From: a virus
Taxonomy: Duplodnaviria; Caudoviricetes
Reading direction: 5' to 3' (one strand)
IMG/VR virus record: IMGVR_UViG_3300031996_000006
Span: 1-59,849 of that record
DNA length: 59,849 bases
Shown: positions 17,336 to 37,814 of the stretch, piece after piece
How positions within the stretch are numbered: the first letter of the stretch is position 1
Layout of the letters: each line of letters starts with the position of its first letter
Notes under the pieces: model-generated
The model's input: the letters and a program-made list of their open reading frames with translations, nothing else
What the model was told of the DNA's origin: nothing
The model's database searches: none
Translations under genes and position numbers: made by a program

Positions 17336-17752
17336 ATGGCTACTGACCAGAGGGAACGGCAGATTGCCGATTCTCAGTTCGGCGGGGGCGCTACAACTTG
17401 GGCTCCCGCCACGTGGTACCTCGGCCTTTCCACAACCATTCCTAACGAAGATGGTTCGAACTTTACTGAGCCTGTTGGTGGAGCCTACGCGCGAGTCGCA
17501 GTAGTGAATAACACTACCAACTTCCCGGCTGCGGCAACTTCTAGTGGTGTCACCACGAAGACTAATGGTGCGGCGTTTACATTTGCCAACCCAACCGCTA
17601 ACTGGGGTCAGATCCTCTATTACGGCTGGTTCACGGCTGCTAGTGGTGGTGTCCCTGAGTACACAAATGCTCTAGACACTCCTGTCACTGTAAACAACGG
17701 TAACACTCCTGTTCAGTTCGCTACGGGACAGCTCGTGACGGCATGGGATTAG
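17336..17752 (+). CDS. Small tail fibre-type subunit (module 1)
   Basis: YLGLSTT.P..E..GGAYARVAV..N...F..PT..WG motif; related to 36730-37131. Confidence 0.75.
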   Translation: MATDQRERQIADSQFGGGATTWAPATWYLGLSTTIPNEDGSNFTEPVGGAYARVAVVNNTTNFPAAATSSGVTTKTNGAAFTFANPTANWGQILYYGWFTAASGGVPEYTNALDTPVTVNNGNTPVQFATGQLVTAWD

Positions 17753-17755
17753 CCC

Positions 17756-19417
17756 ATGACCACTACTATCCAGTTAGTACAGAACGCTTACAACTCGGTT
17801 TGCCGATACCAAACTAAGAGTTGTCAGGCGACTTTTGAGGACCCGACGCTTCCAGGTTCTCTGGTGATTGCTACTGCCGTTATCGGCGGTGGAGCTTGCG
17901 ACGTACAGATTTCAGATCCAGGTTTTGTTCTGGTGCGGTCGACCGCATATGGCCGAGTCCACCTTTACATGTGGTATTACCAGAACGCTCCGACGATGAA
18001 CTCGATTACGGTCTCTGCACGTGATGACCGTTCCATTCAGCTTCGAGTTATGGAATACAGCGGTGCGTCTCAGTCCAATGCATTGGATCAGGTTGTCGTT
18101 CGTACGTCCTATTCCAATAGGTGTGACTCGGGTCAGACCGGTATTACGGTGCAGGCTGACGAGATTGTCGTTGCCTGTGTCGCGAATGCGTACACCGGCT
18201 GCACGCAGAGTGGCTTCTCGGGCGGCTTGGTTCGACTATTCGAAGCCCTGAGTCCATACTCCTATGCAAATAGAATCTATAACGACGACTCAGATCGAAC
18301 AAGGTGGACTCACCACCACCTAATCGCATCCATCCGTACGTACTTCAACATTTCCTGTTGGTTGTCTTCGTATCGTGACTGGATTGCGATTGTCGCCACT
18401 TTTCGTGGAGGCTCGTCCGGACCTAAGCAGCTTACTTCTAAGGCTGGAACTGCAACCACTCAGACGGGTGGTAAGTCTACCGGTATTCTGACGGCGTTTG
18501 GCCCGCTTCAGAGTAAAGCCAATCCGGCGGTCACGAAATGTGGTAGTGGACAGCAGGCAACCATCCTGCCATTCAACTATCAGTATTGGATTGGGCCAAA
18601 CCGCTTCCTCATCGGTTCCGGCACTCAGTTCCACGTCCAGGGGACCTCGGGGCTCGGCGGCCACTCAGTGCGCACGAGCGACCAGGATTTCCCCCGGGCC
18701 GACGGATCGCTCCGAGGCGTCGACCTCGGGTCTGCACGCGTTGTTACTTTTGAGATGAACGTGGGCAAGGGCCGGGACGTCGTTGAGCTGAACATGAACC
18801 TGCTGTACCGAGCACTCGTCCCCCAGCGGAATGAGGACTGGCAGCTTGTTTGGCGACACCCTGACGACGTTGCCAGGATGATGTACGTTCGGCCTACTGA
18901 TTTGGTACGTGAGCGAAACAATAAGCAAATCACGTTCGCTAATCAGAAGTTCGCCCTGCGAGCTGCGGACCCCCGTCACTATTCCGCAGTGCCTCATCAC
19001 ATCATCATCCCGAACTCTCCAGTGTCGGGAGTACCTAACCTCGTCAACATCACTAACGTTGGCAATATCGCTGCGTACCCTGTGATTACGGTCTACGGAC
19101 CTACGTCGGGTCCGACCGTTAGCCGTGTAACCCTGACGAATATCACGTCTCAGGTCGCCTTTGACGTGTCGTTGAACATTCCTAAGGGATCTACGCTGGT
19201 CGGGGATATGCAGTCTCGAATCACTGGTGCACCTCGGTCAGTGATTACTCTGGACGGTCAGTCCAAGTATGGTGCGTGGGCACTCCCGCGTGAACCATTC
19301 CGTATCGACGCTGACCCGACAGGCCAAGAGGGTTACAACCAGATTTATCTTCAGACTGTGCCTGCCGGGGCTCCGGTTCTGTGCACGTTGGACTACCGCG
19401 ATACTTGGGCAGGTTAA
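17756..19417 (+). CDS. Distal tail (Dit)-like protein with N-terminal S/T-rich beta domain
   Basis: GLGG..VR, A.DP..Y, N.GN..AYP and ..RDTW motifs typical of actinophage Dit proteins. Confidence 0.8.
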   Translation: MTTTIQLVQNAYNSVCRYQTKSCQATFEDPTLPGSLVIATAVIGGGACDVQISDPGFVLVRSTAYGRVHLYMWYYQNAPTMNSITVSARDDRSIQLRVMEYSGASQSNALDQVVVRTSYSNRCDSGQTGITVQADEIVVACVANAYTGCTQSGFSGGLVRLFEALSPYSYANRIYNDDSDRTRWTHHHLIASIRTYFNISCWLSSYRDWIAIVATFRGGSSGPKQLTSKAGTATTQTGGKSTGILTAFGPLQSKANPAVTKCGSGQQATILPFNYQYWIGPNRFLIGSGTQFHVQGTSGLGGHSVRTSDQDFPRADGSLRGVDLGSARVVTFEMNVGKGRDVVELNMNLLYRALVPQRNEDWQLVWRHPDDVARMMYVRPTDLVRERNNKQITFANQKFALRAADPRHYSAVPHHIIIPNSPVSGVPNLVNITNVGNIAAYPVITVYGPTSGPTVSRVTLTNITSQVAFDVSLNIPKGSTLVGDMQSRITGAPRSVITLDGQSKYGAWALPREPFRIDADPTGQEGYNQIYLQTVPAGAPVLCTLDYRDTWAG

Positions 19418-19418
19418 A

Positions 19419-19844
19419 ATGGCTTCTGCATTGTACTCTAAGGGTCGCGAGGGTTTCCTCGACGGTTCTATTGACTGGAATACTGGGACCATTAAGGTCT
19501 CGCTTCTGCGAGGCTACACCTTTAATGATGCTCACCAGTTCCTTTCGGACATCACTTCCTCTGGTGCGACCATCGTTGCCACTCAGACGCTCACCACTCC
19601 TTCTGTAACGGGCGGTGTAGCCAACGCTGACCCTGTTACATTCACCTCGGTCCCGACTGGTACTGCGTGCTCTTGTTACATTCTTTACCAGTCGTCTGCT
19701 CCGTCTGGTGGTGCTGATTTGGCTACCACTTCTCAGCGCCTTATTGCCTACATCGATGATGCTACTGGACTTCCCGTGACTCCTAACGGTGGTAACATCA
19801 ACATCGCGTGGGACTCTGGAGTTAACAAGATCTTCAAGCTGTAG
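19419..19844 (+). CDS. Small tail fibre-type subunit (module 2)
   Basis: MASALYSKGREGFLDGSIDW...LIAYID..GLPVTPNGGNINI.W; ATG at 19419. Confidence 0.75.
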   Translation: MASALYSKGREGFLDGSIDWNTGTIKVSLLRGYTFNDAHQFLSDITSSGATIVATQTLTTPSVTGGVANADPVTFTSVPTGTACSCYILYQSSAPSGGADLATTSQRLIAYIDDATGLPVTPNGGNINIAWDSGVNKIFKL

Positions 19845-19876
19845 CCTTCCCTTCCCCCTTTACTTAGGAGGAAAGG

Positions 19877-21991
19877 GTGGCACCTACTCTAGTTGGCGAT
19901 CAGCTTGTCTCTGTTGATACTTCATACAGTAGTGCAAGCTGTGTGTCATCTTCATTCACTCCCAGTGTCGGTGAAGTCCTTGTTGTCTTCGCTACTACTG
20001 AGAATGAGTCCGTAACGATTGGTTCGGTAACGTCATCCTCTGGGTTGACGTTTACGCTACGTCTCGACATTAACGTATCGGGTGCTTCTCCGATGCGTAT
20101 TTGGACCGCAGTTGTCGACTCCGCTCATGCGGTTGCACAGACAATTACGGTCCCGTTCTCTGGTGGCGGTTCCACTTCATACTCGTATCACAGTATGTGG
20201 TACCAGCGTTGGGGTGCTGCGACAATTGCAACGACACCCGCAATTGCCTCTGCTACTAAGCAGAGCACTCCGAATATCTCACTGACGACAGCTCGCAACG
20301 ATTCCATCATTGCGTGGGTAAGCTGTGACTATAACGGTGTTACTCCACCTACGACAATTACGTATCGTGGTGCCGGAACCACCGAGATTCGTCGTGACTA
20401 CAAGTCTTCTCACTATGTAGTTGATTGTTGTACGCAGGTTGCGGCTGTCGCCGGTGCGTATACGGTCGGTGCCACGAATCCAACGAGCCAGCTTTCCACC
20501 GTTGCTGCGATTGAGATTCAGTCTGGTACTCAGACGATCGCACATCACGGTCTCCCTAGTGCTAACGCATTTGGTAAGGCTGTTGTCATCCATGATGATA
20601 AGACTCTTTCTCATCATGGGATTCCTAGTGCAGTAGCAATCGGGCATGGCACGGTAACTACCGGTCCGGTCACGCTTCAGCACTCCGGATTGGGTCCTAA
20701 GCCTGGTGAGCCTGATGCTTTCGGCATCGCCACCATCCTTATGGGTTTCATGACCCGACCCACCGGGATTCCGTCTGCACTCAACTTCGGTCAAGCAACG
20801 GTTACTCCGGGTCCCGTTACTCTTCAGGGTAAGGGACTTGCTAGTAAAGAAGCGTTCGGTCGTCACAAGGTTATTCGTATTGTCACGGCCGTTCCTTCTG
20901 CACTTATCCCGAAGGAAGGCACCGCAGCAGTTTATGAGCTGGTCTGTGTGGCGCGCGTACCACAGCAGAACGGCCCACCGACCTTCATCGAGATTGACCC
21001 GCTTCAGTTCGACGGCTTGGCCTACACCCAAACCTTGAATAAGCCTTCACAGTTGAACGTCGGTGTCCAGGTTTCGTCGCTGACTGAGCCGATTGTGCAG
21101 CGTCTTCGGAATCTTTCAACTCAGGGTACTGAGTTGTGGCTGTACCGAAATGGTCGTCTGGTATTCGCAGGTCCGTGGATCACTGGGCAGATCCAGAATC
21201 AGTCTCTTACCATCAACGCAAAGTCTCTCGAAGCTTACTTTGACATGATGGTAGTTGTCGCTGATTTGACGTTCAAGCAAATCGATCAGTTTATGATTGG
21301 TAAGCAGCTAATCGACCAGTGGCAGAATCTTACCTTCGGTAACTTTGGGATTGATACTACATCAATCTCCAACTCTGGTGTTCTGCGTGACGCTACGTAT
21401 CTGAAGTCTGAGCTGAACTACGTTAGCAAGCTCTTGTTTAACCTCTCGCAGCTTCAGAACGGTTTTGACTACTGGATTGACCCAACCACCCGAGAATTGA
21501 ACATGTCGTATCCATTGCGGGGTGTGGATAGGTCTACGGGTGAAGGTGCTATTGTCTTCGATGAGCGCAACGTTACCAACACAAATCTGTTGGTTTCGGT
21601 TGCACCTCAGGACGTGGCATCGGATGCGTACGGAACCGGTACGTCGACTGGTGGAACCAACGGAGGTATTTACTCCTCTGCGTTCAATACTCAGCTACAG
21701 GCTACGTACGGTCGCTCAGCAATTGTACAGAATTTCGATGGAGTTTCGGTCCAGGCTACCCTTGACTCTTACACGAAGGCACTAGTCGATGCACGTGGTG
21801 ATGTGCTTTGGGTTCCTGGTCCGGACGCTCTTGTGACTCCAGACTCTGACTTGTCGATGTACGATATCGGCGACACAGTCTCGTACACTCTGCATGAGCA
21901 GCTTGGGATTTCTGGTGCCTATCGAATCCGTCAGCGTCAGGTAAAGGTGGAGGCTTCCGGTAAGGAACTTGTTACTCCACAATTTGCCTAG
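19877..21991 (+). CDS. Tail hub/minor tail protein with N-terminal beta domain and GIPSA.AFG repeats
   Basis: C-terminal part (LWLYRNG.LVFAGP, Y.IGDTV) resembles actinophage baseplate-hub proteins. Confidence 0.8.
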   Translation: MAPTLVGDQLVSVDTSYSSASCVSSSFTPSVGEVLVVFATTENESVTIGSVTSSSGLTFTLRLDINVSGASPMRIWTAVVDSAHAVAQTITVPFSGGGSTSYSYHSMWYQRWGAATIATTPAIASATKQSTPNISLTTARNDSIIAWVSCDYNGVTPPTTITYRGAGTTEIRRDYKSSHYVVDCCTQVAAVAGAYTVGATNPTSQLSTVAAIEIQSGTQTIAHHGLPSANAFGKAVVIHDDKTLSHHGIPSAVAIGHGTVTTGPVTLQHSGLGPKPGEPDAFGIATILMGFMTRPTGIPSALNFGQATVTPGPVTLQGKGLASKEAFGRHKVIRIVTAVPSALIPKEGTAAVYELVCVARVPQQNGPPTFIEIDPLQFDGLAYTQTLNKPSQLNVGVQVSSLTEPIVQRLRNLSTQGTELWLYRNGRLVFAGPWITGQIQNQSLTINAKSLEAYFDMMVVVADLTFKQIDQFMIGKQLIDQWQNLTFGNFGIDTTSISNSGVLRDATYLKSELNYVSKLLFNLSQLQNGFDYWIDPTTRELNMSYPLRGVDRSTGEGAIVFDERNVTNTNLLVSVAPQDVASDAYGTGTSTGGTNGGIYSSAFNTQLQATYGRSAIVQNFDGVSVQATLDSYTKALVDARGDVLWVPGPDALVTPDSDLSMYDIGDTVSYTLHEQLGISGAYRIRQRQVKVEASGKELVTPQFA

Positions 21992-22022: not shown

Positions 22023-22757
22023 ATGGCAGACGATAGGCCGCTTGAAGATCCTACTTCGTCGATCGCAGCATTGCAGCAGCAGGTTGACGACATGAATACA
22101 ACTCTTCAGTCTCGGACTGCACGAATGCCGACTGGATTTATTCAGCCATGGATCGGAACAATTGCTCCGACTAACTCTGTACTTATGCAGGGTCAGGCAC
22201 TTTCCAGAACTACCTATGCGGTGTTGTGGCAGTGGGTACAGGATCAGTCCATTGTCGGCGCTAATCTACCTTTCGGAGTTGGTGACGGAAATACTACTTT
22301 CACCGTTCCTGATCTTAGGGATCGTTTTATTATGGGAGCCTCGGCCACGCAGGCAATCGGCACACTCTTTGGAACGAATGCGTTCCCGCAACATGCACAT
22401 GGATTCGGATCGTTAGCGACTGGCAGCGATAGCCACAAGCACGACCACACATCTACGCACACGCATGGTATTCCTGCCGATGGTGGAAACCACGCTTTCC
22501 ACAACGCTGGTGCTGATACTATCGCGTCTGCTCTGCCAGGCTACCAAGACTTCTTCCACTCCGTCGCATCTAGCACGGGAGCGGGAAACCCTGGTCACGC
22601 TCACAGTAATAACACTACAAGTGATGGTGTATATACACACACCACAGACAGTCACAACCACACGATGAGTGGCTCTACCGACAACGGTCCGGGCACCGGC
22701 ACCACGGTTGACAATCGACCATCCTCAATCGCACTCAACTGGATTCTTTGGACGTGA
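22023..22757 (+). CDS. Tail fibre protein with collar domain and HxH repeats
   Basis: GQALSRTTYAVLW...FGVGDGNTTFTVPDLRDRF collar motif; multiple H-x-H motifs. Confidence 0.9.
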   Translation: MADDRPLEDPTSSIAALQQQVDDMNTTLQSRTARMPTGFIQPWIGTIAPTNSVLMQGQALSRTTYAVLWQWVQDQSIVGANLPFGVGDGNTTFTVPDLRDRFIMGASATQAIGTLFGTNAFPQHAHGFGSLATGSDSHKHDHTSTHTHGIPADGGNHAFHNAGADTIASALPGYQDFFHSVASSTGAGNPGHAHSNNTTSDGVYTHTTDSHNHTMSGSTDNGPGTGTTVDNRPSSIALNWILWT

Positions 22758-25133: not shown

Positions 25134-25184
25134 ATGTGCAAGACAAAGGCAAATGCCAACACCACACATAGAATCGAGTCGAGA

Positions 25185-26363
25185 ATGACTCAGTCTCCGG
25201 ACACCCCCGAAGTACACCCGACAGCGTCAGCAGAGCATCGCGAGACACACCAGATCCACACTTCCGAGATCCGTTCATTCAACGGGTGTCGTCGGCGGTG
25301 GGACTGGGCCTATCGTCAGGGCTTCGTCCTAGATCAGGCGCCCAAGCCTCTAGAGCTTGGCATTGCATTCCATATTGGTATGGAGAAGTTCTACGACCCT
25401 GAGGCGTGGGACTCCACCAGTAAGGAGGAGAAGGCGAGTCGTGCGGTCGTCGCCTTCACCGAGGAGTGCGAGCGCCAGCGGGCAGCCTTCCTGAAGGCAA
25501 CTAATCAGGAACGCATCCTCGTTGCCGAAGGTGATGATTACACCGAGAGAATCGATCTCGGGATTGGCATGATTGAGCACTATGCCAACTACATTCACCC
25601 GGTAGAGGATGACTGGTTCCGACCCGTCATGACTGAGGTAGCTTTTCAGGTACCTCTTACTGATCCTAGGACGGGTGAGCCTCTTCGTTGTTTCACGCCG
25701 GGAACACATGAAGGTGGCTGTGGACAGTTCCATCCTGTAGGTGCTCTAGTCACCTACGATGGCCGTGTGGACATACTGATCGAAGACATCGCCAACGGTG
25801 GTTACTTCGTTTGGGATCACAAATCTGCTGCGCAGGTTCAGAAGAGTGACCACCTGATTCAGATGGACCCTCAGGTAGTCGGCTACAGTTGGGCTCTGCG
25901 TACTGTGCTGGAGTTGGACATTCGGGGATTCATCTACGCGGAGTACCGCAAGGACTACCCGAAGGCGCCTGCACTCCTGAAGAATACTATCAAGGGTAGG
26001 CACTTCAGTACGGACAAGCAGCAGGGTACGAACTTGGCAGTCTTCCTAGAGCATGTGAAGAAGTATGACTTTGACGCATACCAGGATGGATGCTACGATG
26101 AGTTCATCGCATGGCTCAAGTCGAAGGACGGGCCGGTTTTCCACCGGCGGTTCCCAATCCTGAAGACACCGTACGAGCTTGACCAGATGGGGTATAATCT
26201 TAGTATGGAGGCTTCAGAGATGGTCCGACCGTCTCTGCCGATCTACCCCGCACCCGGCCGATTCTCGTGTTCAGGTTGTGGTTACTACACGCCATGCAAC
26301 GGTAAGAACCGAGGCGAAGATTATGAGTACACACTGAACTCGCTGTATCGAAAGGTGAAGTGA
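25185..26363 (+). CDS. PD-(D/E)XK (RecB/Cas4-like) exonuclease
   Basis: F.GCRRRW, G.AFH, GRVD, WDHKSA, Q...Y, C-terminal CSGC..C. Confidence 0.9.
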   Translation: MTQSPDTPEVHPTASAEHRETHQIHTSEIRSFNGCRRRWDWAYRQGFVLDQAPKPLELGIAFHIGMEKFYDPEAWDSTSKEEKASRAVVAFTEECERQRAAFLKATNQERILVAEGDDYTERIDLGIGMIEHYANYIHPVEDDWFRPVMTEVAFQVPLTDPRTGEPLRCFTPGTHEGGCGQFHPVGALVTYDGRVDILIEDIANGGYFVWDHKSAAQVQKSDHLIQMDPQVVGYSWALRTVLELDIRGFIYAEYRKDYPKAPALLKNTIKGRHFSTDKQQGTNLAVFLEHVKKYDFDAYQDGCYDEFIAWLKSKDGPVFHRRFPILKTPYELDQMGYNLSMEASEMVRPSLPIYPAPGRFSCSGCGYYTPCNGKNRGEDYEYTLNSLYRKVK

Positions 26364-26370
26364 CTCCCAA

Positions 26371-27201
26371 ATGACCTCCACTTTGAAGCCTGGACAGCTC
26401 GGCGGGTTGAAGACCCGTAAGGCAAGTGAAGTTAAGAGCAAGCCTTCCATCATGCTTTACGGTGGTTCGGGTATCGGCAAGTCGACTTTGGCTGCCTCTG
26501 CCTGCTTGGTTCCGGAACTCTCACCGGTCCTCCACCTTAATATTGAGAACGGCATCGGCGAGGGTATCTCCGAGCAGTTCCCGGACATTGACGTCCTGGA
26601 CGTCGAGTCCATCGGTGAGCTTCAGAACGCATACGAGTACCTGGCGAAGACAGCAGACCCGGAGTCTGGTACAGTAGGAAGTGAGGGATGGCGGACCGTC
26701 ATCCTTGACAACCTTACTGAAGCTCAGAAGCAGGGCATGGCTCACCTGCACAATGAGTCTCCTAAGACTTTCAAGTTTGATGACGTCCTCACGGGAACGT
26801 GGGCAGACGGAACTTGGAATAAGAATTCGGAGCAGATGCGAAAGCTGATTCGAGCTTTCCGTGGGCTCCCGGTATACACAATCTTTATTGCCTGGGAACG
26901 GGATCTTAGTAAGCCGGATTCCGCTCTTACCGATTTGGTTCCCTCATTCTCTCCTTCCTTTGCGAAGGAGGCACCCGGCATGTTGAATGATATTTACTAC
27001 TATCATTTCGATAAGCAGGGTCAGCGAGTCCTAGAGACTAGCCGGTCAAAGAACTGGACGGCTAAGGACAGGACCGGCAAGATGCCCGCGCAGATTGTGA
27101 ATCCCACCATGAGTGTGATTCACGATTACTGGACGGGACGCAAGACTGCACCAACAGTATCCGAGTCGGCTAAGCGGCCTGGAATTTCTCTGAGGAAGTG
27201 A
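26371..27201 (+). CDS. AAA_24/Sak4-like ATPase
   Basis: LYGGSGIGKSTLA, TVILDNLTE, AKDR; between the exonuclease and SSB. Confidence 0.85.
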   Translation: MTSTLKPGQLGGLKTRKASEVKSKPSIMLYGGSGIGKSTLAASACLVPELSPVLHLNIENGIGEGISEQFPDIDVLDVESIGELQNAYEYLAKTADPESGTVGSEGWRTVILDNLTEAQKQGMAHLHNESPKTFKFDDVLTGTWADGTWNKNSEQMRKLIRAFRGLPVYTIFIAWERDLSKPDSALTDLVPSFSPSFAKEAPGMLNDIYYYHFDKQGQRVLETSRSKNWTAKDRTGKMPAQIVNPTMSVIHDYWTGRKTAPTVSESAKRPGISLRK

Positions 27202-27208
27202 GTGGCAA

Positions 27209-27690: not shown

Positions 27691-27708
27691 CGTCTCCACA
27701 CTGTTTTT

Positions 27709-29166
27709 GTGAAAGGTAGCGTAGTGGCTCACAACAGGAATAGAGGTGGAGAGTCAGGTAATCTCACGCTGATTCGCGGGCACGCAGCAACGTTCGTGCG
27801 GATCGAAGACCCTGAGCTTGACGATCTACCTGAGACATTCATCGACAGGTATCGCGATTGGGGTCGGTCAGTTACCGATGCTCCCCAACAGTATCACACA
27901 CTAGCCGCAGCGGTAATACTCTCCACCATCATTTGTCCTTACACTACGTTGCGAACCTCTTTCGGTGAAATCCGTCCGAACATTTGGGCGATGATTCTCG
28001 CTGGAACTACCATTACGCGTAAGTCCACCTCAATGGACATGGCAAAGCGTCTCCTTACTGACTCCGGTCTCGATTACCTCATGGGTACTGACGGGTCCCC
28101 TGAAGGTATTCTTTCGGAGATGTCAGACCGGGATGGCAAGGTCTCGCTTTTCCACCGTGACGAGATCACGGGTTGGATTGAGCAAATGCGCAAGGACTAC
28201 ATGTCCGGACTCTTGGAGTCCTTCACGCGCATGTATGACGGCATGGAGGAAATGCGCGTCCTCCGCTCTGGCAAAATTGAAGTGAAGAAACCCCGTCTGG
28301 TCATCCTGTCTGGTGGCATTAAGGACCGGATGCAGGAAATCTGTACGATGGATCATATCCGATCCGGATTCCTGCCTCGCTTCATCTTCATTTCCGGGAG
28401 TACCAATCCGGATCAAATGCGGGTGATCGGTCCGCCGCTGCCGGACTCGACTGGCGCCGATCCTCGGGATGCCATCCTCGCTGAGGTTCAGGACATCGCT
28501 GCGTACTGGATTCAGCAGCCGTCCACTCAGACGATCACCATCGCAGGGATGACTAAGAAAGTAACCAAGCAACCGGAACCGCGCACGATGACGGCCACTC
28601 CGGATGCCTGGACTCGGATTCAGCAGCTTCAGGACGATGCTACGCGTCTCGGCGAAGGCACTACCACTCCCAATCTCTACACTCCCATCCTGACTCGCTT
28701 GTCAAACTCTGTTATCAAGATTGCGATGCTTCTTAGTGGTGCACGTAAAAGCACCGTAGTCGAGTATATTGACGTTGTGACTGCGATCCGCTACTCTAAT
28801 GAGTGGGTACGCACCGCAATGGAGTTTGCCCGAGGGATTGAGGTAACTCCCGACCTCAACCCATGGGAGAAGAAAGCAATCAAGATTGTAAAGTACATCA
28901 AGGATAATGGTGGCGCTTCCCGCAGTGAGATCATGCGGCGGTTCCACGTAAAGTCCAAGGATATTCAGGATATTGAACAGACCTTGGTAGCCCGAGGCAA
29001 TATCAAGATTGTCACCCTTGCTGGACAGGGTGCTACCAAGAAATCCCGAGTGGAGTACCGTTTTGTCAACGACGAAGACGAAGCCTATCCGTCTAACACT
29101 AAAGAAGAAGACGACCACCGAGTCCAACTCCGACGAATTCCAGGGCCGGAAGCACCCACTAGCTAA
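27709..29166 (+). CDS. DUF3987/YfjI-like replicative ATPase-helicase with C-terminal winged-helix-like part
   Basis: PNIW..I.AG....RKST, SPEGI, DE, SGFLPRF motifs. Confidence 0.8.
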   Translation: MKGSVVAHNRNRGGESGNLTLIRGHAATFVRIEDPELDDLPETFIDRYRDWGRSVTDAPQQYHTLAAAVILSTIICPYTTLRTSFGEIRPNIWAMILAGTTITRKSTSMDMAKRLLTDSGLDYLMGTDGSPEGILSEMSDRDGKVSLFHRDEITGWIEQMRKDYMSGLLESFTRMYDGMEEMRVLRSGKIEVKKPRLVILSGGIKDRMQEICTMDHIRSGFLPRFIFISGSTNPDQMRVIGPPLPDSTGADPRDAILAEVQDIAAYWIQQPSTQTITIAGMTKKVTKQPEPRTMTATPDAWTRIQQLQDDATRLGEGTTTPNLYTPILTRLSNSVIKIAMLLSGARKSTVVEYIDVVTAIRYSNEWVRTAMEFARGIEVTPDLNPWEKKAIKIVKYIKDNGGASRSEIMRRFHVKSKDIQDIEQTLVARGNIKIVTLAGQGATKKSRVEYRFVNDEDEAYPSNTKEEDDHRVQLRRIPGPEAPTS

Positions 29167-31639
29167 CTGCGAAGAGTGCCCGCTCTACAAAAGGGGTCGT
29201 TATGTCCCTACACGATTCCCTCGAACTGATTCTCCTACTAGTGATGTGTTTGGTCCTACTAGTGATCCTGGTCAAGTTACAAACAGGATTGCGATTGTTG
29301 GAGAAGCACCTGCACGTCAGGAAATTGCAAAGGGCGAGCCTTTTGTTGGCGCGTCGGGGCAACTTCTCGGGACCATCCTCGACCAGTACGGAGTCTCCCG
29401 AGACGAAGTAGTATTGGCGAACGCATGCGCCTGTCACTATCCAGAATCCTTCAAAAAGCTTCCTCCAGAGGCCATCGAATGCTGCCGTCCACGCCTGATT
29501 TCGGAGTTGACCGAAGCGGAGGTTACGACTGTTGTTCCGATGGGCAATTCAGCTGTTCAGTCTGTATTCCCCAAGAACGTTGCACGTGCTGGTATTACTT
29601 CTTTAAGGGCTGGTCGCCCGAAGCAATCCGAGCTTTTAAAAAATATGCAGGTAGTGCCTGCGTTCCATCCTGCGGCTTGCCTCCGAAGCCAGGAGAAGAC
29701 TCCGTATCTGATCGCTGACCTTGGTAAGGCGGTCTCGGCGGATTACCTCCCGCAGGGTTGGTATGAACCGTCGTGGCAAGTGGTATCTCTTCAGTCCCAC
29801 CGATACGAACAGGCTTACCAGCTACTTAACGAGATCACTAACCTCAATGTCGGTGAGTCTGTCTACGTAGATATTGAGGTCGGAGCGGAGAAGGACGTTT
29901 CGTATGGTAACGTTCACATGCAAAAGATGCTCTGCATCGGTGTCGGCCCCTCTGATGTACGAAACGCGGATCACGTCTACGTTTTCACCGCAGATATCTT
30001 TGAAAACCGCATGGTCCGACACGCCTTCATGCGCATGCTGGATGAGTGCCGGATTAAATGCCAGAATGGAAAATACGATATCGGTGTCCTCCGATCATGG
30101 CTGGGGTATGAAGATTTTAGAGGACCAGAGCTAGCCGGAGACACCATGCTCCAGTCTTATACCATTAATGAATATGGAGGTGTGCATGGCCTTGAGTACA
30201 TGGGTATGGAATGGCTTGGTACACCAGACTGGAAGCATGAGATCGCGCCGTACGTTAAGGGTCCGGACGGTAAGGGGCCGGTTGACTACGCCAACATTCC
30301 CGCTGACATCCTCCACAAATACAATGCGTTTGACGTTCACGTCACGCGGCTACTCGATGGCTTCTTCGCGGAGCAGATTGATAAGTTCGGAATCGGTGCG
30401 CCTTACCGATTCATGCTGCGAGCCTCAAACATGCTTACTTTTGTCGAGCCGCGGGGCATGGGATTCGACGTCGCCTATTCTGCTAGTCTTTCCGAAAAGT
30501 ACCAAGCAGAAGCCGACGAGATTGCCAAGAGACTTCCCCTGGTGGCAGATCCGGAATCTAAGCAGAAGAAGCTAAGGGAACCACATCCGCTGAACCCTAA
30601 CTCTCCAAATCAGGTGAAGCAGTGGTACGCAGACCACGGCGTCAACATGGAGACAACCTCTGCTGAGGTTCTGGAATCCCTGCTCCCAAAGCATGAGGTG
30701 CCCAGTGAAGTCAAGCGAGTCACTGAGGATATTCTCTCTATTAGGGCCATCACTAAAATGGATGGAACCTTCGTCGCAGGGATGCGAGCAAGGGTTACCG
30801 AGCGTGGCACCGTGCACCCGTCGTTCCTCATCCACGGGACGACGTCCGGACGGCTCAGTGCGCGTAACCCGAACAGTCAGAACATTCCGCGAGCAAAGGA
30901 AATCAAGAAGCAATTCATTTCTAGTGATCCTGGACGTGTCCTCGTCGGTGTTGACATGTCTCAGGCAGAACTTCGGGTACTTACCTGGTTAGCTAAGGAG
31001 GAATTCACTAGGGAGATTTTCAATGATCCAAGTCGGGATCTTTTTGTTGAGCTGTGTCGCAGTATGTTTCCTGCTAAGTTTAGTGATTCAAGCGATGCTG
31101 AAGTTAAGTCGGACCCAATTCGACCGCTCGTTAAGGGTTTTGCCTACGGTATGGCTTACGGCCGGACTGCTGCTGGCATTGCTGCTGATCCTGAGTTCAA
31201 CATGGATGTGAAGGAAGCTCAGGGTCACATGAACACATTCCAGAAGGTCATCCCAAACATCACTGACTATCTGGAAACTATGGCGGACAACGCTTGTGCT
31301 GGAATCCCTCTTGTTTCTCCTTTTGGTCGTCATCGCCGCTTTCATCTTGTTACCGAGCTGAACCGTCACTCAGTTCGTAACGAAGCTAAAGCGTTTATGG
31401 CTCAGAGCACAGCATCGGATATCGTCATCGAGGCAGCTTGCCGCTTGACATTCGACCACAAGGTCTATATCGTAAACCTTGTGCACGATGCGATCTACGC
31501 TGAGGCAACTCCGGATGAAGCTCCAGAGATCGCACAGTTGATTTCCCGAGTGATGGTTGAGACTGGAGAGGAGTTGACCGAAAACTATGTCCGATTCGAC
31601 ACCGACGCAAAGGTTGGTCATAACTGGGCAGAGGTGTAA
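29063..31639 (+). CDS. Family A DNA polymerase with N-terminal family-4 uracil-DNA-glycosylase-like domain
   Basis: UDG: CEEC, GEAP..E..G.PFVG.SG, HPAA; exo DIE, NGKYD, YNAFD; pol TSGRLS..PN.QNIPR, DMSQAELR, K..AYG..YG, VHD. Likely TTG start at 29063 with GGAG RBS; ORF open from 29009. Confidence 0.95.
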   Translation: MSTTKTKPIRLTLKKKTTTESNSDEFQGRKHPLANCEECPLYKRGRYVPTRFPRTDSPTSDVFGPTSDPGQVTNRIAIVGEAPARQEIAKGEPFVGASGQLLGTILDQYGVSRDEVVLANACACHYPESFKKLPPEAIECCRPRLISELTEAEVTTVVPMGNSAVQSVFPKNVARAGITSLRAGRPKQSELLKNMQVVPAFHPAACLRSQEKTPYLIADLGKAVSADYLPQGWYEPSWQVVSLQSHRYEQAYQLLNEITNLNVGESVYVDIEVGAEKDVSYGNVHMQKMLCIGVGPSDVRNADHVYVFTADIFENRMVRHAFMRMLDECRIKCQNGKYDIGVLRSWLGYEDFRGPELAGDTMLQSYTINEYGGVHGLEYMGMEWLGTPDWKHEIAPYVKGPDGKGPVDYANIPADILHKYNAFDVHVTRLLDGFFAEQIDKFGIGAPYRFMLRASNMLTFVEPRGMGFDVAYSASLSEKYQAEADEIAKRLPLVADPESKQKKLREPHPLNPNSPNQVKQWYADHGVNMETTSAEVLESLLPKHEVPSEVKRVTEDILSIRAITKMDGTFVAGMRARVTERGTVHPSFLIHGTTSGRLSARNPNSQNIPRAKEIKKQFISSDPGRVLVGVDMSQAELRVLTWLAKEEFTREIFNDPSRDLFVELCRSMFPAKFSDSSDAEVKSDPIRPLVKGFAYGMAYGRTAAGIAADPEFNMDVKEAQGHMNTFQKVIPNITDYLETMADNACAGIPLVSPFGRHRRFHLVTELNRHSVRNEAKAFMAQSTASDIVIEAACRLTFDHKVYIVNLVHDAIYAEATPDEAPEIAQLISRVMVETGEELTENYVRFDTDAKVGHNWAEV

Positions 31640-32886: not shown

Positions 32887-32889
32887 TCA

Positions 32890-33945
32890 GTGGTGCTTTT
32901 TGGTGTAGACCTGCACCCTTCCTATCAGTCTGGTATTTCCATTGACCAGATCCACAAGGAAGGCTTTAGTTTTGTTATTTGCAAGCTCTCTCAGGGGAAG
33001 TCGTCGGCTTCCTACGCAGGGTCTATCCCGTGGCTAAAGCGGGCTAAGCAGCTCGGAATGGCCGGACTCGGGTACCACTACCTGACGACGGATGACCCGG
33101 TCGCACAGGCTCAGTGTTTTGCTAAGGCTTTGATGGTTGCGGGTGTCCCGGGGTGCCTTGACGTTGAGCAGGGCAGTGGGGATATCAAGAACGTCAAGGC
33201 ATTCCTAGATGAGGCACAGCGTCTCGGTGCGAAGATTCCACTCCTGTACCTTCCTCGCTGGTACTGGCAGCAGATTGGTAGCCCTTCTCTTAAGGACCTT
33301 CCTGCTTTGTGGTCCTCACGGTATCCGGATAACAACTCGGGTTATGCCTCGAATAACTATCAGCGGGTACCGGCTAACTTTTGGGATGGCTACGGAGGAA
33401 ACTCTGTAGCCGTTCTACAGTTCACATCGTCTGCCAAGGTCGCAGGACACACTACAGACGCAAATGCGTTCAAGGGCACGCTTTCAGACTTTAATGCGTT
33501 GGTTAATGGGACTAACACTCCTGCTCCTAGTGTTAATCCTGCTCCTGCCGTCACTATTGATACTTCTGAGAACGGATTTCTTATGGCACTGAGTGAAGAC
33601 GAGCAGAAGGAAGCTCTTTCGATCCTTCGGAACCTGAATTTCCAGCTCTACTCTGGAAATACGAAGGCTAACCCAGACGGTAAGCCGGGTTGGCCATCGT
33701 TCGAGGGTGGCTCGAATGAGGTTCTGACTGTCGTTGACTACCTGCGTCGTAGCAATGAACGCATGGAAGCACTGACGACGATCATCAATGACGCTGTCGG
33801 TTCAGCTACCACCACGCCCACCAGCACTACCGATACAACGAACAGTGCCCCGACTCCGTTGGGAGACGAGGCACAGCTCGCAGCTATCGTTAAGAATGCT
33901 GTCTTGGAAGTGCTTACTTCTATTAAGCTTACTCCCAGCGAGTAG
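32890..33945 (+). CDS. Endolysin, GH25 muramidase
   Basis: FGVD...YQ, F.I.K.SQG, GYHY, LDVE, LW.SRY, LQFTS motifs. Confidence 0.9.
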   Translation: MVLFGVDLHPSYQSGISIDQIHKEGFSFVICKLSQGKSSASYAGSIPWLKRAKQLGMAGLGYHYLTTDDPVAQAQCFAKALMVAGVPGCLDVEQGSGDIKNVKAFLDEAQRLGAKIPLLYLPRWYWQQIGSPSLKDLPALWSSRYPDNNSGYASNNYQRVPANFWDGYGGNSVAVLQFTSSAKVAGHTTDANAFKGTLSDFNALVNGTNTPAPSVNPAPAVTIDTSENGFLMALSEDEQKEALSILRNLNFQLYSGNTKANPDGKPGWPSFEGGSNEVLTVVDYLRRSNERMEALTTIINDAVGSATTTPTSTTDTTNSAPTPLGDEAQLAAIVKNAVLEVLTSIKLTPSE

Positions 33946-36664
33946 TAGAGTAACCACCGAATTCAGAGGTCCGACTCACCTTAACCAAGGATGGGTCGGA
34001 CCTCTTCCATTTTCCGGTAGTGTGGAAGTCCTGAGACTGAGTCACAGTTGAATCGGACTTCTCCCATTCACCGACAGTGTGGTAGTCACGAGACCTACCG
34101 TCATACACTACAGAGAATGGTAATGGAACTTCGTTAAACGAAAGTTCAGCAAAGAGTTCTAGTGCCTGAATCAGGTACAGAGACGAAAGCATCACCACGT
34201 ATGGGATGCTCAGGAAAGCCTCTGCTGTCAGATCAGCAGCACCGAAGAGAGTACGCAGATATCCAGTAGCGTACTGAGGTATGGCAGTCAACTCTAGTGA
34301 GACAACACGCTGATAGACAGCTGCGACACTGATCAACGCATGTGCACTGAAGAGACCGAATGTCAGGTTACGAATAAAGCTATTCGTGAACTGAGCAACG
34401 GCTGTCAGAGAGGTATCACCGAAGCTAAGACGCGCTCCCACGATTGTGAGCTGCGGGACAATGTCACAATTCACGGTGCCGAATCGAGTAATTACCCCAT
34501 TAGAGGAGAACTCGGGCACAACGGTCAAATCGGTCAGAGCAAATAGGGTCCTCAGTGGCTCTGTAACAAGATCCATCACCACGTCTAGGGTGACGACCCC
34601 GGCGAGGGTCCTCAGAGGCTCAGCGACCGAGATAACGGCGTTAGCGAGGAAAAGGGCAGTACCTGTGTGCTCCAGTCCCCCACTCAGCGTAATAAAGGTT
34701 ACGGCATTCAGCGGTAGCGTTCCGAAAACGTTAGCGTCGATGTCGACAAAGAACTGCGGAACGACACTGAGCGTAAGCGTAAGGTGATAATCACCCGTGA
34801 TCGTCAGTGCAATGGTGGGGAGAGCCGTGAGGACGCTACCACCCACACCGATAGTCACGGTACCTGCACTGAACGTGACTACAGAAATCCCATTGAAGAC
34901 TGGAAACTTGGTTACAACTGCGTTCACAGTTAAAGTCGCAACCGCAGTCGTGTTCAGAATACCAAGCTGAATCTGGAAGCCGGTCACGCTCAACGTCGGG
35001 ACTGCGGTCAACGAAACAGTACCGATATCAATCGGGATACCGACAACCGACAGTGTCGGAACTGCTGTCAGCGAAGTAACCGCGTAATCAATAGCAATAC
35101 CGACGACACTCAACGTCGGGACAGCGACCGCGGTGAAGGTTCCGACAAGGATCTGATAACCGGTAGTGCTAAAGGTTGCAGTAGCAATACCAGTGAAGGT
35201 ACCGAAGCCGGTTTGGATTACTCCAATTGAGAGTGTCGGCGTTGAGATGAAAGAAACAGGCGCGGCACTGACCGTTGCTGCTGTCAAACTAAAAGTCGGT
35301 ACAGCCGTTAGAGACGTAGTGCCGAACTGAATCCGAGTTCCGTTAACAGTAAGGGTCGGCACCGCCGTTGCAGTGAACGCCCCGAACTGTGTAATCAGCC
35401 CACTCGTTGAGAGGGTAGGAACCACACTTAGAGTGACTGACGAGAATCCTGTATAGGAATACGTCGCACTGAATGTCGGGACCGCAGTCAGTCCCACACT
35501 GCCAAACTTCGTAACTACACCAGAGACCGTCAGTGATGCCACTCCGGTCAAACTGACCGTGGCAAACTGTGTCATGATTGGCGTAGCGAAAAGCGTTGGT
35601 ACCGCAGTCAATCCGACTGTACCGGTTGCCGCTGTCAACCCATTTACGGATAGGGTTGGGACAGCAGTTCCCGAAAAGGTGGGGAACTTGGTTACTACAC
35701 CCGATACCGCGAGGGTCGGGACCGCCGTCAGGGCTTCGTTAGCAAAGCTAATAGAAACTGGGCTGGCGGTGAGCGTCGCTGTAGCTGTGAGGGTGGCCGT
35801 GCCGGGCTGCTGACGCGTGCCGCCGATTGTGAGCGTGCCCGAGGCCGTTAGCGTCGTGGGTGCAGCCTGAGTTTCGACCGGCCCAATCGAAAGTGTAGCC
35901 GTAGCCGAGACGTTGAATGCGCCAAAGGTCTCATCAATGGCGTCGCTATCAAACGTCGGAACAGCAGTAAGAGAAACTGTTCCCTGATACGTAGTGGAGG
36001 TAGGACCATCACTAATTGCTGCGGTATAAGCAAGAGCCTTACCGGCAGTGGGTTGGTTAGCTGTCGGTGGCGCAACCGCAGTCGTACCGAGGGAAAGGTT
36101 ATAGCATGAACAAGAGCCGTACGGGTCTACAGTACGGAATGTCCAACCACCCGAGCCTGTCGGGTTGGTACCTGAGTTCTGTGGGGCAGCGTGCGCAAGA
36201 CCAAGACATCCAGTAACCGTCGGAGTAATCGACGGATAAGGCATTGACGTGCTAGATGCGTCAACCTGCCGTGCGAATGTATTGACGGCCCATGCCGCGC
36301 TTGTACCAAGGGTAGAACGATACGAAGAAATGTTATAACAAGGAAGCGAAGCTGGTGCTACGTTGAATGTGACGGTGATAGTCGTACCGGTATTTGCGGT
36401 ACCGACTCGACCCCACCACATTTGCAGGGTGTCACCGACTGTGGAATCACGAAGCGGTGTACCGGTAGTGATTTCTTTCCAACCACTAGCGTCAACGCCA
36501 CCACCAGTGATTCCTGTTACCTGAACAGTTTGCTTGGAAATCATGATGTAAGCGACCATGAGATCGCCTACAGCGACAGCAGAGCTAAAAGAGAATGTCC
36601 AGGTAGTCGTGTTGACTGTAGAAGAAGCCTGAGCAGACTTTTGCTGAATGCTAGAAATCGTCAC
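33929..36664 (-). CDS. Long fibre-like protein: N-terminal beta domain plus about 30 tandem 20-aa repeats (G.VSLTAVPTLSV.G)
   Basis: 20-aa periodicity from about aa 228 to 850. Confidence 0.85.
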   Translation of the reverse strand: MTISSIQQKSAQASSTVNTTTWTFSFSSAVAVGDLMVAYIMISKQTVQVTGITGGGVDASGWKEITTGTPLRDSTVGDTLQMWWGRVGTANTGTTITVTFNVAPASLPCYNISSYRSTLGTSAAWAVNTFARQVDASSTSMPYPSITPTVTGCLGLAHAAPQNSGTNPTGSGGWTFRTVDPYGSCSCYNLSLGTTAVAPPTANQPTAGKALAYTAAISDGPTSTTYQGTVSLTAVPTFDSDAIDETFGAFNVSATATLSIGPVETQAAPTTLTASGTLTIGGTRQQPGTATLTATATLTASPVSISFANEALTAVPTLAVSGVVTKFPTFSGTAVPTLSVNGLTAATGTVGLTAVPTLFATPIMTQFATVSLTGVASLTVSGVVTKFGSVGLTAVPTFSATYSYTGFSSVTLSVVPTLSTSGLITQFGAFTATAVPTLTVNGTRIQFGTTSLTAVPTFSLTAATVSAAPVSFISTPTLSIGVIQTGFGTFTGIATATFSTTGYQILVGTFTAVAVPTLSVVGIAIDYAVTSLTAVPTLSVVGIPIDIGTVSLTAVPTLSVTGFQIQLGILNTTAVATLTVNAVVTKFPVFNGISVVTFSAGTVTIGVGGSVLTALPTIALTITGDYHLTLTLSVVPQFFVDIDANVFGTLPLNAVTFITLSGGLEHTGTALFLANAVISVAEPLRTLAGVVTLDVVMDLVTEPLRTLFALTDLTVVPEFSSNGVITRFGTVNCDIVPQLTIVGARLSFGDTSLTAVAQFTNSFIRNLTFGLFSAHALISVAAVYQRVVSLELTAIPQYATGYLRTLFGAADLTAEAFLSIPYVVMLSSLYLIQALELFAELSFNEVPLPFSVVYDGRSRDYHTVGEWEKSDSTVTQSQDFHTTGKWKRSDPSLVKVSRTSEFGGYSTTRWE
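33965..34005. terminator. Hairpin at the convergence of the endolysin and fibre cassette
   Basis: AGAGGTCCGAC / GTCGGACCTCT stem. Confidence 0.7.
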
Positions 36665-36729
36665 TCGACTGCTCCCACAATTCGGTATTCAGTTAGAAGG
36701 GTGGCCCACTAAAGTAGGCCACCCTTTCA

Positions 36730-37131
36730 TTAACCAGCCTGGAAACCGACAGTGATAGAACTCGCAGCAAATGAAAGTGTATCCCCAGCCGCAACAACCT
36801 TGCTCGAACCAAGAGCACCATAAAGCTTACGGACCGGAGTACCCGCAGAGTCGTAAAAGTCAACCGAAGTCACCGTAGCGGCTGGCATATTCGTGTAGGA
36901 AACGACAGACGAGTTCGTGATCTGTCGAGACGCAGCCGCGTTCCACGTAGTGACAGCCTGACCGCCAGCGGTGTAACCACCGGAAGCTGTGACCTCAGTA
37001 CCAGCAGCCGAGTCCGAACCAACAGCAGTGTTGAGCCGCATCTTCAGCGGACCCGTGGTAGCCGGGTACGTAGTCTTACCAACAATGGCTTCGAGAAGCC
37101 GGTTCGCCTCAGCATTGTCAAGAACAGACAT
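36730..37131 (-). CDS. Small tail fibre-type subunit (module 3)
   Basis: TEV..GGY...AV.W..A...ITN...V.AGDTLSF motif; related to 17336-17752. Confidence 0.8.
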   Translation of the reverse strand: MSVLDNAEANRLLEAIVGKTTYPATTGPLKMRLNTAVGSDSAAGTEVTASGGYTAGGQAVTTWNAAASRQITNSSVVSYTNMPAATVTSVDFYDSAGTPVRKLYGALGSSKVVAAGDTLSFAASSITVGFQAG

Positions 37132-37430
37132 TACTTGCCCTCCACCAGCTTCTCGGCATAGCCAACAGCGTCATCAGTAGTGAAGATCTCGTGCTGTTCC
37201 ACAAGCTCAGGGTCAGTGAGGTGGTCCACGAGAGCGTCATCCTTCAGGTGGCTACCGAAACCACCAGCGGTGTCCAGAACCGCACGGCACACAGCACAGC
37301 CCGTCGCAAGGACGTGGCAATCCATGTGCCAAAAAACAGTGTTGCCATCCGGAAGCGCGACCGCATCACGAGGGGCAGTATCAGTCTTACCGCACCCAAT
37401 GCAATTCCGAAGTGGACGGTCCTCTGCCAT
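37131..37430 (-). CDS. Zn-binding protein (CxxC, HxxCH, CxxC)
   Basis: Motifs; TAATG coupling; AAAGG RBS. Confidence 0.75.
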   Translation of the reverse strand: MAEDRPLRNCIGCGKTDTAPRDAVALPDGNTVFWHMDCHVLATGCAVCRAVLDTAGGFGSHLKDDALVDHLTDPELVEQHEIFTTDDAVGYAEKLVEGK

Positions 37431-37454
37431 ATCTTTAACCTTTCGTTATTTAAA

Positions 37455-37814
37455 TCACAGGTCCATCATAAAAGGACCGTGCGCTATCCGGACCGGCGGT
37501 GCTGTCACATTAGGGCCGATCAAATAGCAGTCATAGTGGTAACGGGAGAAATTCCATTCCTGCGTCACAGCAGGGTCGGGAATCATCACGACTTGACTGT
37601 TTTCTAAGGTCAGCCAATGGGAGTCGGTTCCCGTTTGATTATCGGTGCCGCTAATATGAAACGCTCCCTCTAGACACCCCGGGTAGCGTACAATACTAAG
37701 GCGAGCAGCCCAATAACCAATAGTGAAGTCGATAGCTTGCTTGTTAGCGTCGCGAAGGGTGAAGGAGATCTTCTCTCCAGAACCTGGCGCTAATAGGATT
37801 TCAGAATAAACCAC
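37455..37814 (-). CDS. BppU N-terminal-like (Ig-like) fibre attachment protein
   Basis: F.L.D....IDFT...A.L.I and Y.YD..L.......RI..G.F pattern; GTG start after GGAGG. Confidence 0.6.
   Translation of the reverse strand: MVYSEILLAPGSGEKISFTLRDANKQAIDFTIGYWAARLSIVRYPGCLEGAFHISGTDNQTGTDSHWLTLENSQVVMIPDPAVTQEWNFSRYHYDCYLIGPNVTAPPVRIAHGPFMMDL

Follow-up and report, generated by a model that had tools for sequence, protein, structure and literature searches.

Three gene pairs along the viral genome

The window analyzed here is the whole IMG/VR virus record IMGVR_UViG_3300031996_000006 (59,849 bases, estimated completeness 98%), and it harbors three gene pairs, each associating a small protein with a large repeat-bearing partner, that are considered here as candidate "rope" fiber modules. 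Module 1, on the forward strand, was composed of the gene for a 138-amino-acid (aa) Gp80-family fiber subunit (small subunit 1, P0001; 17336-17752) followed, after a gap of 3 nucleotides (nt), by the gene for a 553-aa predicted rope-Dit fusion (P0002; 17756-19417). Module 2, on the same strand, encoded a 141-aa protein resembling Bxb1 gp31 (small subunit 2, P0003; 19419-19844) and a 704-aa predicted rope-hub fusion (P0004; 19877-21991). Module 3 was located on the opposite strand (33929-37131), with the gene for a 133-aa Gp80-family fiber subunit (small subunit 3, P0005; 36730-37131) and that for a 911-aa predicted free rope (P0006; 33929-36664). All six open reading frames (ORFs), first pointed out in an earlier note made from the sequence alone, were recovered. 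The frame of P0003 began at 19269 according to the ORF finder; the ATG at 19419 was favored because it was backed by an alignment of 11 homologues, all starting with M-(A/T/S)-(N/S).

The gene order ran from terminase (2685), portal (4249) and major head protein (9356) to a 1204-aa tape measure protein (13718-17332, forward strand; PHROG 167, E 1.6e-96; Pfam SLT domain PF01464, E 1.2e-6), directly followed by modules 1 and 2. Since this tape measure gene precedes Dit-like and minor tail genes, the phage was considered as long-tailed. Module 2 was followed by a tail-collar fiber gene (22023-22757), replication genes (25134-31639) and an endolysin gene (32890-33945), the latter adjoining module 3. 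No near-identical DNA was found in the phage collection searched.

Repeats and domain layout of the large proteins

Repeats were assessed by BLOSUM autocorrelation against 200 shuffles of each sequence. In P0006 the signal was strongest, with z = 17.5 at lag 20, 13.8 at lag 40 and 12.9 at lag 60, and the units, exactly 20 aa long, stayed in register between residue 222 and about residue 841 (nt 34142-36001). About 20 of these units were clearly alike (residues 218-608 under a stricter rule) and about 10 were degenerate, so that "about 30" units is a fair description. P0004 harbored five G(I/L)PSAxAFG-type units between residues 223 and 336 (nt 20543-20884; z = 5.6 at lag 23), their core (A/N/I)(F/I)G being found at residues 232, 255, 282, 304 and 327. 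In P0002, two units of about 26 aa were found at residues 224-249 and 250-275 (nt 18425-18580; z = 3.0 at lag 25), and this two-unit layout was retained in a relative (L022) whose small protein was 68% identical. The repeat counts of 2, 5 and about 30 given in the earlier note were confirmed, the period being exactly 20 aa in P0006, about 23 aa in P0004 and about 25 aa in P0002.

Downstream of the repeats, the first two large proteins carried tail-tip domains, as had been proposed. The Dit-like C-terminal part of P0002 (residues 283-553) matched a minor tail protein family (PHROG 5577, E 5e-16) and a Dit family (PHROG 33, E 2e-8) over residues 283-521. Residues 374-672 of P0004 matched another minor tail protein family (PHROG 1885, E 9e-26), within a hub/minor-tail part covering residues 372 to 704 approximately; it is labeled "hub-like" by analogy with the usual siphophage gene order, because the gene follows those of the tape measure and Dit. 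No peptidase match was obtained for P0004 in Pfam or NCBIfam, its single-sequence PDB search gave nothing meaningful, and none of the six module proteins matched an NCBIfam family. P0006 had no match by sequence in Pfam, PHROG, NCBIfam or PDB.

Each large protein began with an N-terminal domain some 220 residues long (1 to about 220 in P0002, 1-215 in P0004 and 1-221, nt 36002-36664, in P0006), whose existence, already noted earlier, is real at the sequence level. These three domains belonged to no Pfam, PHROG or NCBIfam family, and neither BLAST nor hhalign with thin profiles related any of them significantly to another. As leads only, the N-terminal domains of P0004 and P0006 shared their three nearest unnamed viral clusters in the ESM Atlas (scores 0.95-0.96), and the structural neighbors of the P0004 domain in that resource were accessory domains of secreted bacterial enzymes (TM, template modeling score, about 0.8). 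Calling the domains "adhesin-like" is a guess.

P0006 ended with a conserved 70-aa C-terminal tail (residues 842-911, nt 33932-34141), which may be the virion anchor. The tail displayed a 19-residue insertion compared with the two closest relatives, resembling a duplicated G-(E/K)-W-(E/K)-(K/R)-S-D element. Other ropes (L028, L030, P0012) likewise terminated in two or three short Trp-containing elements, and such elements may constitute a virion-anchoring signal.

Affiliation of the small proteins

Two of the three small proteins were assigned to PF23140, the Pfam family "Podophage GP4 fiber I protein gp80" (Gp80), for which membership is defined by the curated gathering score of 27 bits. P0001 scored 83.4 bits (E 2.2e-23) and P0005 43.8 bits (E 4e-11), and a scan of the whole genome recovered these same two sites. 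A search with P0005 among 1.84 billion cluster representatives returned 494 matches at E <= 0.001. The profile built from 124 of its relatives matched the solved GP4 chain 8jou_a over the full length (E 1.8e-12) and, weakly, the Sf14 chain 9c39_K (E 0.004); the entry 9c39 is named as the Sf14 whisker protein in a preprint. Single-sequence PDB searches with P0001 and P0005 gave nothing meaningful.

P0003 was affiliated to another group. It matched PHROG 644, a "tail wing arm" family (E 2.3e-30), and the chain "Tail wing arm, gp31" of mycobacteriophage Bxb1 in PDB 9d93 (E 2e-6). Its AlphaFold2 (AF2) model reached a predicted local distance difference test (pLDDT) value of 80.7, and the Foldseek top match, 9d93_Ra (probability 1.00, TM 0.70 by target), was its only convincing structural match in PDB. 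Within BFVD the model matched small viral proteins; weaker matches there (ranks 11-12, probability 0.99, TM about 0.5 by query) were to the N-terminal portions of proteins named "tail collar fiber". Pairwise BLAST among P0001, P0003 and P0005 was not significant. Judged by sequence, the subunit set is composed of two Gp80-family proteins and one gp31-like protein, P0003 not being demonstrably a Gp80 relative. Of the idea of three parallel small subunits, the part concerning P0001 and P0005 stood, both falling into a single Pfam family, and a kinship of P0003 with them was not shown.

A role of the small proteins in capsid cementing or decoration was considered and rejected: only the label of PHROG 240 points to the head, whereas fiber subunits are what both the curated Pfam family and its solved member represent.

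Predicted complex of module 3

The cognate pair of module 3 was modeled with ESMFold2, using four copies of P0005 (124-row alignment) and residues 502-561 of P0006, i.e., three units (3-row alignment). The interface score ipSAE (interaction prediction score from aligned errors) was 0.82, 0.70 and 0.77 in the three runs (median 0.77), and 0.16 in the best of three controls. The runs had at least 94% of contacts in common, with a partner pLDDT of at least 67. Of the multimer check proposed in the earlier note, in which each small protein was to be compared on cognate and non-cognate repeats, this covers the cognate pair of module 3.

In the model, every copy of P0005 bound the rope through the same surface (residues 1-4, 90, 103-122 and 125-131), its C-terminal strand being joined to the rope by consecutive residue pairs. 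The four copies together spanned rope residues 503-547, that is about 45 residues or about 22 per pair, near the value for A1002. Residues 128, 129 and 130 of copy 3 paired with rope residues 532, 533 and 534 in ascending order, and residues 130, 129 and 128 of copy 4 with rope residues 536, 537 and 538 in descending order. The model supports one 20-aa unit being common to two oppositely oriented subunits, an arrangement consistent with a dimer and expected if a single strand were clasped by a two-fold dimer. Tandem docking on an extended rope by beta-strand pairing was thus predicted for module 3 at model level.

These results bear on the mechanism put forward in the earlier note, according to which each repeat would be a strand completed by one copy of the small subunit, as in donor-strand complementation, with the repeat number setting the length of three appendages. 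The pairing of small proteins with the repeats of their partners by beta strands was upheld by the PF23140 membership of two of the three, by the match to 8jou_a and by the complex score against its controls; the repeat number should therefore set the fiber length. One copy per repeat was wrong, because the model places two subunits on each 20-aa unit and published fibers are built of dimers. Pilus-type donor-strand complementation did not hold either, all four subunits binding one rope chain, separate as it also is in the published fibers, through the same surface, and the chaperone-usher analogy would apply solely in the sense of strand insertion.

Modeled alone with AF2 (9-row alignment), P0006 gave a mean pLDDT of 54 and a predicted TM score (pTM) of 0.41, with the N-terminal domain below 50, and no structural match (best Foldseek E against PDB 0.08).

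Recurrence of the gene pairing in other phages

Relatives of P0005 were found in seven viral loci. In six of them (L025-L030), an ORF with a 20-aa period was encoded on the same strand, adjacent to or within about 2.3 kb of the small gene, the ORFs being 586-1368 aa long with a lag-20 identity of 0.40-0.82. The remaining locus (L031), a partial match, was without such ORF. By a strict rule, unit numbers were about 6 (L029), 17 (L030), 28 (L028) and 37 (L027), the lowest count being likely too low because the lag-20 identity of that protein was only 0.40.

Close relatives of P0006 were sought in viral contigs through peptide patterns, and none was confirmed; a large protein database returned nine matches. 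Four of these (P0008-P0011) displayed a rope of the 20-aa type behind an alginate lyase domain (PF08787), and P0012-P0015 displayed ropes behind unrelated long N-terminal regions, so that the head appears exchangeable and can be an enzyme. In the alignment of P0006 with its two closest relatives, overall identity to the first sequence was 57% and 64%; the unit count was identical and the N-terminal domain was the most diverged part. The small subunits of these two relatives were 94-95% identical.

P0003 had relatives in 401 phage records, among which 353 were from Mycobacterium phages. In 8 of the 14 viral loci with a P0003 relative, an adjacent ORF passed the period threshold, at lags of 20-23. 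Units of the IAS(A/L)EAFG type were found in L008-L010 and L015, and a different unit type in L013. Wildcat gp45, encoded directly upstream of the P0003 homologue gp46, began with five GI(E/A/G)S(A/G)EAFG units, and the hub protein of L022 carried three SIPSGE(A/S)WG units at its very start, without a head domain. A motif rule (at least three I.S..[FWVI][GRHT] within 35 aa of each other) was satisfied in 9 of the 20 loci scanned that contain a P0003 relative vs none of 9 without, several of these loci being near-duplicates; the rule misses the close relatives of the window itself, and the GP4 locus and the window are outside its counts. The co-occurrence anticipated earlier between small proteins and periodic partners was borne out, incompletely, in 6 of 7 P0005 loci and 8 of 14 P0003 loci.

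Mini-ORFs of 132-133 aa, made nearly entirely of five units, followed the P0003 relative in L016-L018. Two of these mini-ropes (L016:6418-6816 and L018:6406-6807) were built of 23-aa units and ended in ...VPFEI or ...VPFTI. The C-terminus of Bxb1 gp30 (L004:14031-15521), ...DVPFEI, had the same ending, which may be a shared docking or anchoring peptide.

Pseudomonas phage F116 encoded a protein, p48 (L003:6001-10680, covering p48-p51), 47% identical to P0003. No clean rope was found in F116 by the motif rule, and the 987-aa p51, encoded two genes downstream, had no clean period; many irregularly spaced (S/A)(A/V)FG motifs were observed in it. In the loci of close relatives, the only other strong periodic ORFs were tape measure proteins (L006/L020:336-3920 and relatives) with a period of 22 aa (identity 0.40-0.42 at lag 22, near residue 598). 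Such periodicity is an ordinary feature of tape measures.

In GP4, the gene directly after gp80 (L032:12948-13925, reverse strand) encoded a protein of 325 aa in which, over residues 17-237 approximately, a period of 20 aa (z = 6.5) and a half-period of 10 aa (z = 4.7) were observed. This protein was absent from PDB by sequence and is a candidate for the GP4 rope.

Genes surrounding the modules

The gene following the hub fusion (22023-22757, forward strand) was a conventional tail-collar fiber gene (Pfam Collar PF07484, E 2.4e-11), and the phage would therefore carry a classical fiber besides the three rope modules. Two genes on the forward strand (37882-39422) lay directly beside module 3. 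The product of one had an NlpC/P60-like endopeptidase part (PHROG 329 minor tail protein, E 4.5e-16; NCBIfam RipC-like, E 1.3e-11, which is below the cut-off), and the other gave LysM and transglycosylase-like matches. Since these genes add to the endolysin and to the SLT domain of the tape measure protein, several wall hydrolases are present in the genome.

Two further small genes were located upstream of small subunit 3. The product of orf99 (37131-37430, reverse strand) was rich in Cys (CxxC and more Cys pairs) and zinc-ribbon-like by eye; it was conserved at 91-92% in two close relatives, had a partial counterpart (51% over 55 aa) ahead of the P0005 relative in L030, and had no family or PDB match, including by single-sequence PDB search. 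An assignment of orf99 as an Ig-like "tail-fiber adapter" of the GP4 type was rejected, as it had no similarity to the 93-aa GP4 protein and was Cys-rich instead. The product of orf128 (37455-37841, reverse strand) was conserved in close relatives only, and a single-sequence PDB search with it gave nothing meaningful.

Three putative rope fibers

The region probably encodes three chain-like (rope) fibers of the GP4/VP1/A1002 kind, as suggested by the family assignments, the repeats and the module 3 model. Taken separately, module 3 is likely to form such a fiber, module 2 is somewhat favored to do so, and for module 1, the weakest of the three, the balance falls slightly short of even. Each large protein would be an extended rope of short repeats, along which dimers of the neighboring small beta-protein would dock successively, the rope strand joining the sheets of both subunits of a dimer (beta-sheet augmentation). 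One unit of 20-26 aa would hold one dimer, giving loads of about 2 dimers on P0002, 5 on P0004 and up to about 30 on P0006. At about 27 Å per dimer, as in A1002, the fibers would measure about 5 nm, 14 nm and up to 80 nm, respectively. The polarity would be that of the A1002 nozzle-rope, from an N-terminal globular free end through the rope to a C-terminal anchor.

In siphophage tail tips, Dit is normally a hexamer and the hub/minor tail protein normally a trimer. The tail could thus bear six Dit copies, each with a short appendage of two P0001 dimers, and three hub copies, each with five P0003 dimers. On the free rope there would be up to about 30 P0005 dimers, with the conserved C-terminal tail as its point of attachment. 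Each appendage would end in a globular head, which may bind a receptor; the same docking mode in modules 1 and 2, the fiber lengths and the attachment sites are presumed.

The gene pairing and its recurrence elsewhere, the repeats and the family membership of two small proteins were observed directly. Of the overall interpretation offered in the earlier note, fiber subunits strand-paired with repeats were retained, and the one-per-repeat stoichiometry, the donor-strand mode and the claim that no such system had been described were abandoned.

Several observations weigh against three rope fibers. The repeat signal of P0002 is weak when taken alone, with two weak units. P0003 had no Pfam match at E <= 0.1, its family and that of P0005 were not significantly similar by hhalign (probability 0.5%), and no GP4 entry was found among the Foldseek PDB matches listed for its model. 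The Bxb1 protein gp30 is a carboxypeptidase-bearing base without I.S..AFG repeats, unlike the five-unit array on the hub in the present phage. No repeat ORF was found near the P0003 relative in L012 and L014, and in L023 and L024, which harbor distant P0001 relatives, there was only a leucine-rich-repeat-like ORF, by eye. PHROG 240, containing P0001 and P0005, is labeled "head protein". Complex modeling covered module 3 and its cognate pair alone; the score of 0.77 expresses how confident the model is in its own prediction and could stem from memorization of 8JOU, and the calibration of the score mark, reached by 58 of 80 solved complexes vs 2 of 110 mismatched pairs, was done on single-chain pairs and with the tool's own alignments. 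The repeat region of P0006 modeled alone was all-beta (pLDDT 55-85, with a 20-residue alternation in confidence), which could reflect a self-folded solenoid. Finally, the candidate GP4 rope has about 11 units of 20 aa vs five resolved dimers, which would fit one subunit per unit, unless only a portion of the fiber was resolved or the rope is another protein.

Some of these points could be explained if module 3 alone were a multi-dimer rope, P0001 and P0003 acting as single-dimer adaptors or "arms" bound to one site on Dit or hub, as may be the case for the Bxb1 wing arm or the P2 fiber adaptor, and the 2 and 5 weak repeats being linkers or part of another fold. The only solved relative of P0003, Bxb1 gp31, is present as 6 chains in 9d93 with a repeat-free partner, gp30; the P0003 model resembles the N-terminal parts of the "tail collar fiber" proteins in BFVD; the weakness of the module 1 repeats goes in the same direction; and a P2 preprint models one rope segment lying between two adaptor chains. 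Set against this, the I.S..AFG-type motif occurs three to eight times per protein beside P0003 relatives of unrelated phages (Wildcat gp45, L008-L010, L015 and L022), five-unit mini-ORFs follow the P0003 relative in L016-L018, and the spacing of the motif (22-27 aa) equals the rope length per dimer in A1002 (about 24 aa). Restricting the rope to module 3 is therefore unlikely, though it is the most serious of the alternatives.

It is more improbable that the repeats fold by themselves as a beta-solenoid or beta-helix shaft, of the sort known from many fibers and tailspikes, the small proteins being separate decoration or assembly proteins sharing the operon. The continuous beta strands predicted across the repeats of P0006 alone would fit such a shaft, as would the "head protein" label of PHROG 240 and the (poor) beta helix also predicted for the equivalent region of phage LSH1 (PMC13243795). 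The P0006-alone model was however of low confidence and had no good structural counterpart, the rope was placed when the small protein was present, far above the best control, the family of the small protein includes a member solved as part of a rope fiber, and a period-20 partner recurs in six of seven loci. A real pairing with one subunit per repeat, each unit completing the fold of one subunit, is very improbable: the near 1:1 ratio in GP4 (about 11 units after gp80 vs 10 gp80 chains in 8JOU) speaks for it, but the model sets four subunits on 45 rope residues with one repeat touched by two opposed subunits, A1002 has about 24 rope residues per dimer, and the 325-aa GP4 protein also displays a 10-aa half-period, its identity as the rope and its full occupancy not being established.

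Wider reading

Beyond three rope fibers in this genome, a more general reading is tentative and has somewhat less than an even chance: that rope fibers follow a readable code, in which a unit of about 20 aa stands for one dimer and each subunit family recognizes its own motif, the P0005 family LTAVPTL-type units and the gp31-like family I.S..AFG-type units. One virion would then bear three orthogonal subunit-rope pairs with different preset lengths and no cross-talk. Such ropes, of at least 37 units in the longest case and with exchangeable heads (beta-domains or alginate lyase), would be widespread and mostly unrecognized across long-tailed phages, having so far been taken for hypothetical proteins or "hallucinated beta helices".

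If true, fiber length and subunit copy number could be read from sequence by counting units, and a common class of unannotated phage genes would gain a function (494 matches for P0005 and 401 records with P0003 relatives). The rope principle would extend from podophage nozzles and collars to Dit and hub of long-tailed phages, and the "extra structural module" of siphovirus LSH1 would be accounted for. Adding or removing units, or swapping the head domain, would offer a handle for engineering. The gain would be in breadth and annotation rather than a new principle, because the mechanism is already published.

Comparison with known rope fibers and related systems

The absence of any description of such a system, assumed in the earlier note, was not confirmed. 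"Chain-like fibers" or "rope fibers" are described in GP4 (J Mol Biol 2023, as cited in PMC13730344), VP1 and A1002, where tandem arrays of Gp80-like dimers are docked on a rope through beta-sheet augmentation (PMC13730344), and the mechanistic guess made from the sequence was close to this published mechanism. One chain also threads through dimers in the whiskers of Sf14, and one rope segment was modeled as lying between two adaptor chains in P2, both as stated in preprints. In the literature searched, neither a rope fused to Dit or hub of a long-tailed phage nor three subunit-rope pairs in one genome were found, nor a rope of about 30 units or unit motifs specific to subunit families.

The Bxb1 tail wing (gp30 base, gp31 arm and gp33 brush; PDB 9D93) is linked to module 2 through the small subunit, P0003 being related to gp31 by sequence and fold, and both systems are accessory tail-tip appendages of siphophages. 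By eye, no counterpart of the gp30-like base or of the Gly-rich gp33-like brush was present here, the neighbors of P0003 being the Dit and hub fusions.

LSH1, a siphovirus of Alishewanella, carries an "extra structural module" (gp34-36) next to its lysis genes. Behind the lyase-like head of gp34 comes a region predicted, poorly, as a "beta helix", for which the authors had no explanation; the other components are a dimer resembling the GP4 fibril and a small protein of Ig type (PMC13243795). Module 3 resembles it by its position beside lysis genes in a siphovirus, by an N-terminal globular head followed by a poor beta-helix region, and by the neighboring small, presumably dimer-forming, protein matching the GP4 fibril protein. 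The LSH1 head is lyase-like, whereas that of P0006 belongs to no named family, and the third gene is Ig-like instead of encoding the Cys-rich orf99. The LSH1 authors, unable to assemble the parts, proposed an end-to-end join of fibril and payload, with no rope.

Fiber I of the Ralstonia podophage GP4 (gp80, PDB 8JOU) shares its Pfam family with P0001 and P0005, and in GP4, too, the gene of a protein with a 20-aa period comes immediately after that of the subunit. The rope of GP4 is reported as a separately encoded protein bearing five dimers on the podophage collar (PMC13730344). Its adhesin-like protein (568 aa) is apparently the product of a separate gene, whereas in the present phage the head is fused to the rope.

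The best architectural parallel is the Pseudomonas podophage A1002 (PLoS Biol 2026; PMC13730344), which bears six chain-like fibers of 11 dimers each, the dimers of gp40 and gp41 folding like GP4 gp80 and VP1 gp11. The A1002 rope is about 300 Å long, with an Ig-like domain near its N-terminus and its C-terminal part inside the nozzle; its 268 residues in nozzle-rope gp39 per 11 dimers correspond, by our own arithmetic, to about 24 residues each. A1002 and, by prediction, the present phage have in common small subunits of similar size (about 140-170 aa in A1002, with a GP4 gp80-like fold and dimers in tandem on the rope), a rope within a tail structural protein running from an N-terminal globular free end to a C-terminal tail anchor, comparable rope lengths per dimer (about 24 residues vs periods of 20, 23 and 25 aa) and more than one kind of small subunit per virion. 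A1002 differs in being a podophage and in the fusion partner of its rope, a split nozzle protein; two subunit types are carried on one 11-site rope. The attachment to podophage nozzles or collars, as in GP4, VP1 and A1002, is not encountered in the present long-tailed genome, which is likened to A1002 by architecture. Compared with these fibers, the features that would be new here are the presence of a tape measure gene in the genome, the fusion of ropes to the N-termini of Dit and hub, a third, free rope of about 30 units, and three pairs in which each rope has its own subunit gene.

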